This document shows positions 5,119 to 6,776 of a stretch of 64,000 bases of DNA, in pieces. Under the pieces are notes generated by a model. The model searched no databases. It was not told the DNA's origin and worked only from the letters and a program-made list of their open reading frames with translations. The position numbers and the translations under genes are program-made. Positions within the stretch are counted from its first letter, which is position 1; each line of letters opens with the position of its first letter. Source of the DNA: Alphaproteobacteria bacterium (GTDB lineage: Bacteria > Pseudomonadota > Alphaproteobacteria > JAUXUR01); assembly GCA_030680745.1 (NCBI GenBank), contig JAUXUR010000077.1, forward strand, positions 4,197 to 68,196, given 5' to 3'.

Positions 5119-5193
5119 TGGGGCGTCGCCAAGTGGTAAGGCAGCGGTTTTTGGTACCGCCATTCGTGGGTTCGAATCCTCCCGCCCCAGCCA
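5119..5193 (+). tRNA. tRNA-Gln (anticodon UUG), copy 1
   Basis: Manual fold. Acceptor TGGGGCG/CGCCCCA, U8, anticodon stem GCGGT/ACCGC, loop TTTTGGT giving anticodon TTG, TTCGAAT T-loop, terminal CCA encoded. Closely resembles E. coli tRNA-Gln. Confidence 0.9.
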
Positions 5194-5195
5194 AT

Positions 5196-6518
5196 TCAGT
5201 TTATCGTATGCCTTTTTTTAAAATCTACCTGATAACGATTACTTTTAGATTTTGGTTTTGGCTTTTTAATTTTTTTCTGAATTTTTAATACGTTCGGCAA
5301 TTTCTTATCTTTTTTACTTGGTTCTATAATCACTGGTATTTGAAGTGCGTTATCCATAGAAAATATGATAAAAGGCATAAAATAAGGTATGTTTTGTTTT
5401 TCTTTTATATTTGCAATTGTAGAAGTTGACATATCTTTTAAAAAGAGCTCAATATATATTCTTATTGCAGCACGTTCAGTTTCAGGATAGGCTAAAAAAT
5501 AATTTTTAAAAAAACTTTGCATTGCAATACTAGCGTTTGTGCATATGTTCGAAATAGTTGTTGCGCATATTTCGGTTTCGTTCATAGCATCAAAAAAAGA
5601 AATAAAAATTGAAAACAAATCACCCTCAACTGGATTGCTATCAGTTGTTTTCGATACGTAGCTGTCATTATCAATAGTTTCAACTTGGTTTTTTGTAAAA
5701 TCAAAATAAATATTCCCGCCATGCGCATCCCCATGGGTAATTGTTTTATAATAATCGGTTAGTTTTTTTTCGTAGCGCGTAATTGGATTGTTTTCAAATG
5801 TATCATCTTGCAATAAATCTTTACTAAGCAATGTTGATTGATCCATAAATGTAACATGCATATTTCCAAAAGCTTGACCTAATTTTTCGTAAGCTTTGAT
5901 AATATTATTAATAGATTCATTCTCGATAATATCATGAAATGGTTTTCCTTGGGCTGCATTTAAGATAATAAAATATCTATTTTTATCATTACTATCCATA
6001 TAATCAAATGAAAAAGGTAGTGCAAATAATGGTTTTGGAAAATCAGTTGGATTGTCTAAAAGCCATTGAATTTTATGATTTGACTGAACAATTCTTAAAT
6101 TATTGACCTCAATATCATAATCCTCTAAATTTTTAATAACATAGGTTAATTTCCATTCATTTGATGCTATTGGGTTTAAGCATTGCTGATTAATACTAAT
6201 AAGTGTAATTTTTAAATCACGTTCTGAATCAGATGGATTTCTTAATTGAACACAATTTGGATTTATCAAACGATCGCCCCTTTCATTTGGATCTAAATAT
6301 AAACTATTGTCTAAAAAATCAAAATATTCTTCACCATTTTCATCTTGTTCAATATTTTTTTTACTAAGCCAATCCGCAATAGATTCAATCTTAAGACCAT
6401 TTTCAGATATCTCATCATTGGTGACAAATATTTCTTCAAAAGCATATAAAACATTTGATGTAAAAAAAACGCCTATAAAATAGAGAACGCCTATAAAATT
6501 ATTCATAACAACCTCCAC
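5196..6518 (-). CDS. Secreted or membrane-anchored phosphotransferase-fold protein (APH/choline-kinase-like); horizontally acquired islet gene
   Basis: N-terminal hydrophobic segment. Brenner-type motif ITHGDAHGGNIYFD followed by TIDND. Lys-rich tail (KKIKKPKPKSK). The gene is visibly AT-richer than its flanks and lies between two identical tRNA-Gln genes. Confidence 0.5.
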   Translation of the reverse strand: MEVVMNNFIGVLYFIGVFFTSNVLYAFEEIFVTNDEISENGLKIESIADWLSKKNIEQDENGEEYFDFLDNSLYLDPNERGDRLINPNCVQLRNPSDSERDLKITLISINQQCLNPIASNEWKLTYVIKNLEDYDIEVNNLRIVQSNHKIQWLLDNPTDFPKPLFALPFSFDYMDSNDKNRYFIILNAAQGKPFHDIIENESINNIIKAYEKLGQAFGNMHVTFMDQSTLLSKDLLQDDTFENNPITRYEKKLTDYYKTITHGDAHGGNIYFDFTKNQVETIDNDSYVSKTTDSNPVEGDLFSIFISFFDAMNETEICATTISNICTNASIAMQSFFKNYFLAYPETERAAIRIYIELFLKDMSTSTIANIKEKQNIPYFMPFIIFSMDNALQIPVIIEPSKKDKKLPNVLKIQKKIKKPKPKSKSNRYQVDFKKRHTIN

Positions 6519-6701
6519 CTGTACATGTTCTATTATTTGTAAAAAAGATTAAAATAAAGTTAAAAAATATTTTATATTTCTACTTTAGTAAATTTATTTT
6601 ACAATTTATTTTGATCTTTATAAAAACAATCAATTAATAGCAGAAGCCTACAAAAGGGGTTGTGTAAGATGTAAAAAGGCTGTATCTTGTCATTATTCTT
6701 T

Positions 6702-6776
6702 TGGGGCGTCGCCAAGTGGTAAGGCAGCGGTTTTTGGTACCGCCATTCGTGGGTTCGAATCCTCCCGCCCCAGCCA
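6702..6776 (+). tRNA. tRNA-Gln (anticodon UUG), copy 2 (identical to copy 1)
   Basis: Identical 75 nt. The ~30 bp upstream (aaaaaggc..TGTAT.TT...ATTCTTT) is also similar to copy 1, implying duplication of the gene plus promoter. Confidence 0.9.

Follow-up and report, generated by a model that had tools for sequence, protein, structure and literature searches.

Two tRNA genes and the gene between them

The window, meaning the whole 64-kb stretch of alphaproteobacterial DNA analysed here, contains a locus at which two tRNA-Gln(UUG) genes bracket a single gene for a kinase-fold protein that is predicted to be exported. ARAGORN and Rfam (RF00005, 52.6 bits for each) placed copy 1, with its CCA end encoded, at 5119..5193 and copy 2 at 6702..6776, both on the plus strand. 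The two genes are 100% identical, which confirmed the first-pass annotation of this DNA, and the Rfam scan gave no matches besides them. Each lies within a direct repeat of 128 nt (5069-5196 and 6652-6779, 90% identity), composed of about 50 nt of upstream sequence (about 74% identity), the 75-nt tRNA gene and 3 nt downstream, and the exactly identical stretch common to both repeats is only about 90 nt long. The upstream regions had been annotated as similar over some 30 bp; the similarity is real and was found to be longer, as it covers the whole upstream part of the repeat. In an alignment of these upstream parts (5069..5118 and 6652..6701, plus strand), promoter-like hexamers could be read by eye, with TTGCAT...TATATT ahead of copy 1 and TTGTGT...TATCTT ahead of copy 2; a promoter scan of the locus did not include these hexamers in its list.

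The gene between the tRNAs occupies 5196..6506 on the minus strand, and its 436-residue product matches at 100% identity a deposited protein, MDP1724864.1 (Q8L85_09215), from an Alphaproteobacteria bacterium metagenome-assembled genome (MAG). The open reading frame (ORF) was listed as 5196-6518 and its product had been given as 440 residues. The ATG at 6506 is preceded by GGAGG 5 nt upstream, and the listed GTG at 6518 falls within that Shine-Dalgarno sequence; judged by these signals the true start is almost certainly the ATG, and the length was corrected to 436 residues, as in the deposited protein. The gene and tRNA copy 1 are convergent, with 2 nt separating the TGA stop (5196-5198) from the CCA end of the tRNA. 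Between the two tRNAs this is the sole ORF of at least 60 residues, shadow ORFs aside, and no integrase, recombinase or remnant of either was found there. The AT-rich spacer at 6507..6651 holds the GGAGG ribosome-binding site and the presumed promoter of the kinase gene, divergent from that of tRNA copy 2; minus-strand promoter-like matches in this spacer were weak and no more frequent than in shuffled sequences. No convincing intrinsic terminator was detected 3' of either tRNA or of the kinase gene (fold z-scores from -0.9 to +0.8), and for this reason a role of the antisense tRNA as terminator of the kinase gene was no longer considered.

The composition of the gene was compared with the window background. 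Its GC content of 0.279 is the lowest among the 49 ORFs of the window (mean 0.364, standard deviation 0.033, z -2.8), and its GC at third codon positions (0.19) is the second lowest of the 49, all three codon positions being lowered. The description of a single, AT-richer ORF on the opposite strand whose stop abuts tRNA copy 1 was thereby upheld, as was the expected departure from the composition of the flanks. The low GC is not unique in the window, because ORFs without a Pfam match also reach 0.29-0.31. Five such ORFs, of 291 to 1296 residues, had no Pfam match at E≤1e-3: 45926-48535 (-), 57985-61875 (-), 17320-18765 (-), 14180-15055 (+) and 56797-57687 (+). Four of them have a GC of 0.29-0.31 and the fifth (57985-61875) 0.347, and they are possibly lineage-specific proteins. 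Members of the kinase family on other contigs are likewise AT-richer than the contig that carries them (0.348 versus 0.391 in L001; 0.311 versus 0.399 in L006). GC deviation as proof of horizontal transfer was rejected on both grounds; low GC, measured from the sequences at hand, is a family property on every contig measured and is no evidence of foreign origin. A GC trough of 0.22-0.24, below that of the kinase cassette itself, was also observed at 12001-12600, between an ORF of 1131 residues and the next gene.

The ratio of nonsynonymous to synonymous substitution rates (dN/dS) of the kinase gene was 0.20-0.27 in four comparisons and 0.10 against the sibling MAG contig L005, with values of 0.03-0.30 for the flanking housekeeping genes. 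These ratios indicate purifying selection, from which the gene is judged to be functional and less constrained. Diversifying selection was ruled out by dN/dS values of 0.2-0.27.

A kinase-like family predicted to be exported

The relatives of the protein were collected by several searches. A word-indexed search of 5.8 billion proteins gave three homologues, and a profile-based homologue search added no named relatives. A HMMER scan with a four-sequence profile against 1.84 billion cluster representatives (clusters at 50% identity) gave 167 relatives at E≤1e-3, so the family comprises at least 167 clusters. Conservation was counted in a 78-sequence alignment of the family. No Pfam, NCBIfam, PADLOC or PHROG family exceeded its threshold for the window protein. 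The Pfam APH model (PF01636) scored 12.5 bits over residues 251-275 (E 0.12), below its gathering cutoff of 23.2, and just 16 of the 78 relatives match it at E≤1e-3. A single-sequence search of the PDB gave no match, and a profile search of the PDB gave weak kinase matches, the best at E 0.009. Going by these scores, the protein belongs to an uncurated and undescribed family.

The alignment revealed the complete catalytic set of the protein-kinase-like superfamily, consisting of a beta3 lysine, an alphaC glutamate, an HGDxHxxN loop and the metal-binding aspartate of an IDxE motif. In the window protein these correspond to K125 (6132-6134, minus strand, as for the motifs that follow), E133, the catalytic loop H258-G-D-A-H-G-G-N265 (5712-5735) and the metal-binding I278-D279-N-D (5664-5675). 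G187, D260, N265, I278 and D279 are invariant columns, D260, N265 and D279 each being counted in 78 of 78 sequences; K125 (77/78), H258 (77/78), H262 and D296 are near-invariant, and E133 is kept in 70 of 78. An AlphaFold2 (AF2) model built on the 78-sequence alignment had a mean predicted local distance difference test score (pLDDT) of 86.7 and a predicted template-modelling score (pTM) of 0.82, with disorder confined to the Lys-rich tail of residues 398-436 (5199-5315, minus strand); the same program supplied with only four close homologues gave an unusable model (pLDDT 35.9). Foldseek with the former model retrieved APH(2'')-IVa at E 1e-7, and among the structural neighbours are many kinases that act on aminoglycosides, macrolides and peptide antibiotics. 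The bilobal fold, the Lys-Glu pair, and the catalytic loop with its metal-binding aspartate, all found here, place the protein in the APH/choline-kinase-like (APH/ChoK-like) branch of the superfamily, and by model and alignment its active site is predicted to be intact. The translation does contain the hydrophobic N-terminal segment, ITHGDAHGGNIYFD...TIDND and the Lys-rich tail read by the first-pass annotation, and the proposal there of an APH/choline-kinase-type fold is in accordance with the AF2 model, the Foldseek match and the conservation across the 78 sequences.

Ahead of the kinase core lies a family-specific region of about 75 residues (roughly residues 25-100) with the motifs GL(T/K)...WLSK...NGE.Y.D.L...LY...NP.C. 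The extreme N-terminus is a predicted signal peptide (residues 1-22; 6441-6506, minus strand). Such termini were judged by a hydropathy scan and by reading by eye, and a hydrophobic N-terminal segment was present in 60 of the 76 family members that start with Met. A/S-x-A-like sites follow it in the members inspected, namely LYA|F in the window protein and IYA|E, INA|E, SNA|E, SHA|F and TYA|I in relatives. C85 and C109, each conserved in 51 of 78 sequences, fit an extracytoplasmic disulfide, and from these features the protein is predicted to be exported by the Sec route.

The family is expanded within single genomes and is linked with glycosyltransferases. The window MAG (Q8L85 tags) carries at least four paralogues counting the window protein, the others being P0008 (Q8L85_05975, 31% identical to the window protein), P0017 (Q8L85_10530) and P0154, a protein of 1124 residues in the same 90% cluster as P0004. 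Among the NCBIfam models, APH_3p scored 12.1 bits for P0008, its cutoff being 205. No contigs were retrieved by exact look-up of either the window protein or P0008. In P0004 a signal peptide is joined to two kinase-like domains, and a DXD glycosyltransferase of the Gly_transf_sug type forms the C-terminal part; in the sibling MAG this protein adjoins a second Gly_transf_sug protein of 617 residues with its own signal peptide. There, on contig L011 (JAUYSY010000057.1; 389-5765 and 7702-9465), the gene for the 1124-residue kinase/glycosyltransferase fusion is divergent from the 617-residue Gly_transf_sug gene, and an LHH nuclease-toxin gene with a SUKH/SMI1 immunity gene lies a few kb from them. 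The product of 626 residues called for the same Gly_transf_sug gene in L012 has a faint TcdA/TcdB-type match. P0010, from another lineage, also adjoins a signal-peptide-bearing Gly_transf_sug protein. Ankyrin repeats occur in two of the 78 relatives, and one relative matches the Kdo/WaaP LPS-kinase (lipopolysaccharide kinase) family.

The locus in relatives and its origin

The arrangement of the locus was compared among related contigs. L003 (91% protein identity) and L005 (99%; GCA_030696155.1) have the window layout of PCuAC, tRNA, gene, tRNA and response regulator. The differences between the upstream regions of copy 1 and copy 2 are the same in both as in the window, and the duplication therefore predates the three strains. 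L008, whose gene is in the 86% orthologue group and whose PCuAC is 75% identical, carries PCuAC, tRNA copy 1 and the gene. A scan of genome contigs retrieved the sibling MAG contig L005 only, and scans of metagenome contigs with the exact tRNA pattern and with protein patterns were both empty.

L007 lacks the cassette. Its flank proteins ErpA, XthA and PCuAC are 97%, 86% and 86% identical to those of the window, and ErpA-XthA-PCuAC are followed by a copy-1-like upstream region, one tRNA-Gln and then a right flank of the copy-2 type; tblastn of this contig found no trace of the kinase gene. Window positions 6652-6799 align by blastn with L007 2905-3052 at 91.9%. The right flank of copy 2 (6777..6799, plus strand) thus also follows the single tRNA-Gln of L007, and the homology stops at its end. 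Such an arrangement is as expected either before an insertion or after recombination between two tRNA copies. The gene is thus present in some relatives and absent from another, and the statement that it is not core genome was borne out. On the evidence of these contigs, the cassette is accessory and dispensable and probably varies in copy number.

More distant relatives bear on the age of the association. In L001 an orthologue of 44% identity ends 1 nt from a single tRNA-Gln, again convergent, between addA and a HIT-family gene. Gene and tRNA were therefore linked before the duplicated state arose, and their association does not depend on it; its recurrence at a different locus makes the two look like an old linked pair. 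The remote member P0007 (L006) has no tRNA nearby, and the tRNA linkage is therefore limited to the orthologue group of the window gene and does not extend to the whole family.

Two further patterns point to recombination at the locus. L004 is a MAG contig of 1929 nt whose ends are identical over exactly 141 nt, giving a closed path of 1788 nt that runs through the kinase gene, the spacer, the copy-2 upstream region and the tRNA before it re-enters the kinase gene at its 3' end. This junction of copy-2 upstream region, tRNA and gene 3' end is absent from the window arrangement, and it is what would be expected of a tandem duplication or of a circle excised between the tRNA copies. The contig names of the sibling MAG indicate MEGAHIT with k=141, and simple collapse of a repeat at this k is not expected, because the identical stretch in the window is only about 90 nt. 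The second pattern is a mosaic of divergence. Against L005 there were 0 mismatches over 5300-6100, with about 5 per 100 nt in the left flank (4422-5099), where one 100-nt bin reached 15; L003 gave the reverse picture, with 0-4 per 100 nt in the left flank and 5-13 in the gene across 5600-6400. Synonymous divergence of the cassette from L005 was 0.029, compared with 0.11-0.27 for the flanks, and from the L004/L008 species it was 0.26, compared with 0.45-0.72 for the flanks. Exchange of cassette alleles between strains would account for the mosaic, and so would metagenome contigs that are strain-chimeric.

The account preferred here, to which a probability of roughly 55% is given, is that an old module of tRNA-Gln and exported kinase was duplicated unequally and that homologous recombination between the tRNA copies now leads to loss, amplification and the exchange of alleles. 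The ancestral unit would have been a tRNA-Gln(UUG) gene with a convergent, abutting kinase gene. Unequal or tandem duplication of this unit, followed by loss of one gene copy, is the most likely route to the present order. The identical tRNA genes would then serve as recombination handles through which the 1.58-kb unit is likely to loop out, leaving an empty site; homologous recombination is the likely route of loss because no integrase is present. The same recombination could yield a tandem or circular form and could exchange alleles between strains.

Several points weigh against this account. The right flank of L007 beyond the 23 nt (BipA) is not syntenic with the window, and the site is therefore also a rearrangement breakpoint. 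L007 and L008 are nearly equidistant from the window (about 88% and 87% amino acid identity, pooled over three flank proteins), distances that favour neither gain nor loss as the direction of change. The L004 loop could be an assembly artefact of low coverage, and the mosaic pattern could come from strain-chimeric contigs.

The strongest competitor, judged unlikely and still to be reckoned with, invokes the same mechanism in the opposite direction: a mobile cassette from another lineage, in the form of a small circle or a fragment of a tandem array, entered the resident tRNA-Gln by a single crossover and duplicated it, L007 being the ancestral empty site. A single crossover gives exactly the observed order of copy-1 upstream region, tRNA, gene, copy-2 upstream region, tRNA and copy-2 flank, and the closed loop of L004 has the structure of the circle. 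The upstream regions differ by 26%, as if they came from two sources, the cassette is less diverged than its flanks at synonymous sites in the two comparisons above, and gene and tRNA occur together at a different locus in L001. L001, however, has one tRNA-Gln, where insertion into a resident copy predicts otherwise. At least three older paralogues reside in the same genome, the AT-richness is common to the family on other contigs, the unit encodes no transfer function, and the loop and the mosaicism are perhaps assembly artefacts. An extension of this idea, that the 1.6-1.8-kb unit of tRNA-Gln with its promoter and the kinase is an integrase-less mobile circle or tandem array which spreads from strain to strain through homologous recombination at the chromosomal tRNA-Gln, a gene conserved universally, with cargo from a hitherto unrecognised family of Sec-exported kinases that modify host or prey molecules extracellularly together with exported toxin-like glycosyltransferases, is more doubtful still and is offered as speculation.

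The proposal of the first-pass annotation, a tRNA-targeted acquisition, was not supported when taken in the usual integrase sense. So understood, a foreign element would have integrated site-specifically at the 3' end of tRNA-Gln through an integrase, since lost or acting in trans, and have delivered a kinase effector, and direct repeats involving a tRNA flank the gene, whose GC is the lowest in the window and which is absent from L007. It is very improbable nonetheless: only one ORF and no integrase or remnant lies between the repeats or at the tRNA-proximal end, the repeat comprises the whole tRNA with 50 nt upstream and 3 nt downstream, the opposite of an att duplication limited to the 3' end, the abutment with the tRNA is kept in the 44%-identical orthologue elsewhere, low GC is intrinsic to the family, and the kinase matches no phage family in PHROGs and no defence family in PADLOC. 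The last result also led to rejection of the defence-system and prophage-remnant readings. On the preferred account the cassette is not a recently imported foreign island. If the duplication account is true, a duplicated tRNA is enough to make a single gene dispensable, amplifiable and exchangeable with no dedicated recombinase, and caution is needed before tRNA-flanked AT-rich islets are equated with horizontally acquired islands.

The surroundings of the tRNA genes also contain small repeats. Two copies of a repeat some 346 nt long lie in the window (6844-7189 and 23166-23511, 90.5% identity); its core of about 190 nt (6965-7156) has perfect 29-nt inverted repeats at its ends, each with the hairpin ACCTCTCCC-CTTGTG-GGAGAGGT. 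It resembles a miniature inverted-repeat transposable element and is found shortly past the 3' end of tRNA copy 2, a spot at which L003 lacks it. Other GC-rich palindromic small repeats were seen around the locus in L005 (4923-5473), L004 (about 420-650), L009 (1800-2200) and L008 (1972-2093). The one in L004 sits in the spacer between the kinase gene and tRNA copy 2, where that contig carries an extra insertion of about 180 nt resembling a small repeat. Related palindromic repeats occur in the window at about 4257-4384, 45687-45829 and 57720-57853, and also at 16979-17077. From their distribution the tRNA-Gln neighbourhood appears as an insertion hotspot for small palindromic repeats.

Among the other genes of the window, two tandem response-regulator receiver proteins lie immediately to the right of the cassette (7193-8236 and 8243-8665, both minus strand), the one of 347 residues having a long C-terminal region with no Pfam match. 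They are followed by the ORF of 1131 residues at 8808-12203 (+), in which Fer4_20 and Pyr_redox_2 domains, as in the glutamate-synthase small subunit or dihydropyrimidine dehydrogenase, are embedded in a much longer unmatched sequence. The adjacent ORFs at 41212-42420 (+) and 42704-43912 (+) each encode exactly 402 residues; they may be a tandem duplicate and the sources of the two MFS_1 matches.

Probable function of the kinase-fold protein and comparison with known systems

Judged by its predicted export and its conserved catalytic residues, the kinase most likely uses ATP to phosphorylate a substrate that lies beyond the bacterial cytoplasm, for which a molecule of a host or of prey, or a glycan, would be a candidate. 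Neither ATP nor nucleotide sugars are known to be available in the periplasm. Since no periplasmic supply of them is known, the most economical reading is that the exported kinases and glycosyltransferases have their site of action in, or on, the cells of a eukaryotic host or prey, and we infer an effector role for the protein on this basis. Its basic C-terminal tail is at most suggestive of a translocation signal. Other observations weigh against an exported, active effector. The n-region of the predicted signal peptide of the window protein has no positive charge, and an exported kinase has no obvious source of ATP in the periplasm. The orthologue group of the window gene lacks the GG(T/A)(F/Y)T glycine-rich loop seen in several other members, so nucleotide binding may be altered. 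The Pfam matches of the 64-kb window are to ordinary housekeeping genes and include no secretion system, of type III (T3SS), type IV (T4SS) or otherwise, and no host-association marker.

A doubtful alternative is a periplasmic or surface kinase that acts, together with the exported glycosyltransferases, on an envelope glycan or lipid of the bacterium itself. It draws on the one relative matching the Kdo/WaaP family and on the repeated fusion or adjacency of family members to Gly_transf_sug glycosyltransferases. It would need the periplasmic supply of ATP and nucleotide sugars mentioned above; known LPS kinases act at the cytoplasmic face and have no signal peptides; the ankyrin repeats of two relatives and the faint TcdA/TcdB-type match of a neighbour point to eukaryotic targets; and the gene is dispensable in L007. 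A cytoplasmic APH-type phosphotransferase for antibiotics or metabolites, the resistance-like gene first suggested as another option, is scarcely credible: the weak Pfam APH match and the antibiotic kinases among the structural neighbours speak for it, whereas the window protein matches no NCBIfam APH equivalog, its signal-peptide-like N-terminus is conserved across the family together with the C85 and C109 pair (51 of 78), it carries the extra N-terminal region of about 75 residues and the Lys-rich tail, and genomes carry several paralogues, with fusion to a glycosyltransferase also occurring in the family. If the reading of the protein as an exported kinase is true, a sizeable unannotated family of Sec-exported bacterial kinases has come to view: it numbers at least 167 clusters at 50% identity, single genomes have several paralogues, and some members are fused to exported DXD glycosyltransferases or adjoin them. 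Its ATP and nucleotide sugars would then likely come from inside a eukaryotic host or prey cell, and this uncultured alphaproteobacterial lineage would be marked as host-associated.

At the level of the locus, the nearest parallel is the microcin H47 island of E. coli, which is described in passages of two reports (PMC3191183, PMC5426353) as small, integrase-less and flanked by direct repeats between which it excises. As far as those passages go, the islands of this type and the present cassette share a short accessory segment, direct repeats, the absence of an encoded recombinase and a loss that leaves one repeat. They differ in that the repeats here are complete and functional tRNA genes with promoter-like regions, the cassette holds a single gene, and its mobility is deduced from metagenome contigs.

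At the level of the protein, three groups of kinases were compared. The APH/choline-kinase-like small-molecule kinases (NahK, 4ocj; PsiK, 9eto; APH(7'')-Ia, 6iy9; APH(2'')-IVa) have the same catalytic set as the window protein. Known enzymes of this kind are cytoplasmic, whereas the window protein adds a predicted signal peptide, the N-terminal extension of about 75 residues with its conserved motifs, the Cys pair and a basic disordered tail, and stays below the gathering score of Pfam APH. A parallel in logic is offered by the secretory-pathway kinases Fam20C, Fam20B and POMK of eukaryotes and by bacterial CotH: these are kinase-fold proteins with a signal peptide that act outside the cytosol, and Fam20B and POMK phosphorylate glycans alongside glycosyltransferases, which resembles the link between kinase and glycosyltransferase seen here. 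The effector kinases OspG of Shigella, LegK of Legionella and YpkA of Yersinia have the kinase fold in common with the window protein, and its family is also like them in its accessory genes, lineage-specific expansion, toxin-like glycosyltransferases and, in two relatives, ankyrin repeats. Effectors of this type have no Sec signal peptide and use a T3SS or T4SS; the window protein, in contrast, has a Sec-like N-terminus, and neither system was seen in the 64-kb window. Neither the Fam20/POMK secretory kinases nor the effector kinases were among the close structural neighbours. By its predicted fold and conserved residues the protein is assigned to the APH/ChoK branch of the protein-kinase-like superfamily, outside Pfam APH by score and outside the resistance APH families.

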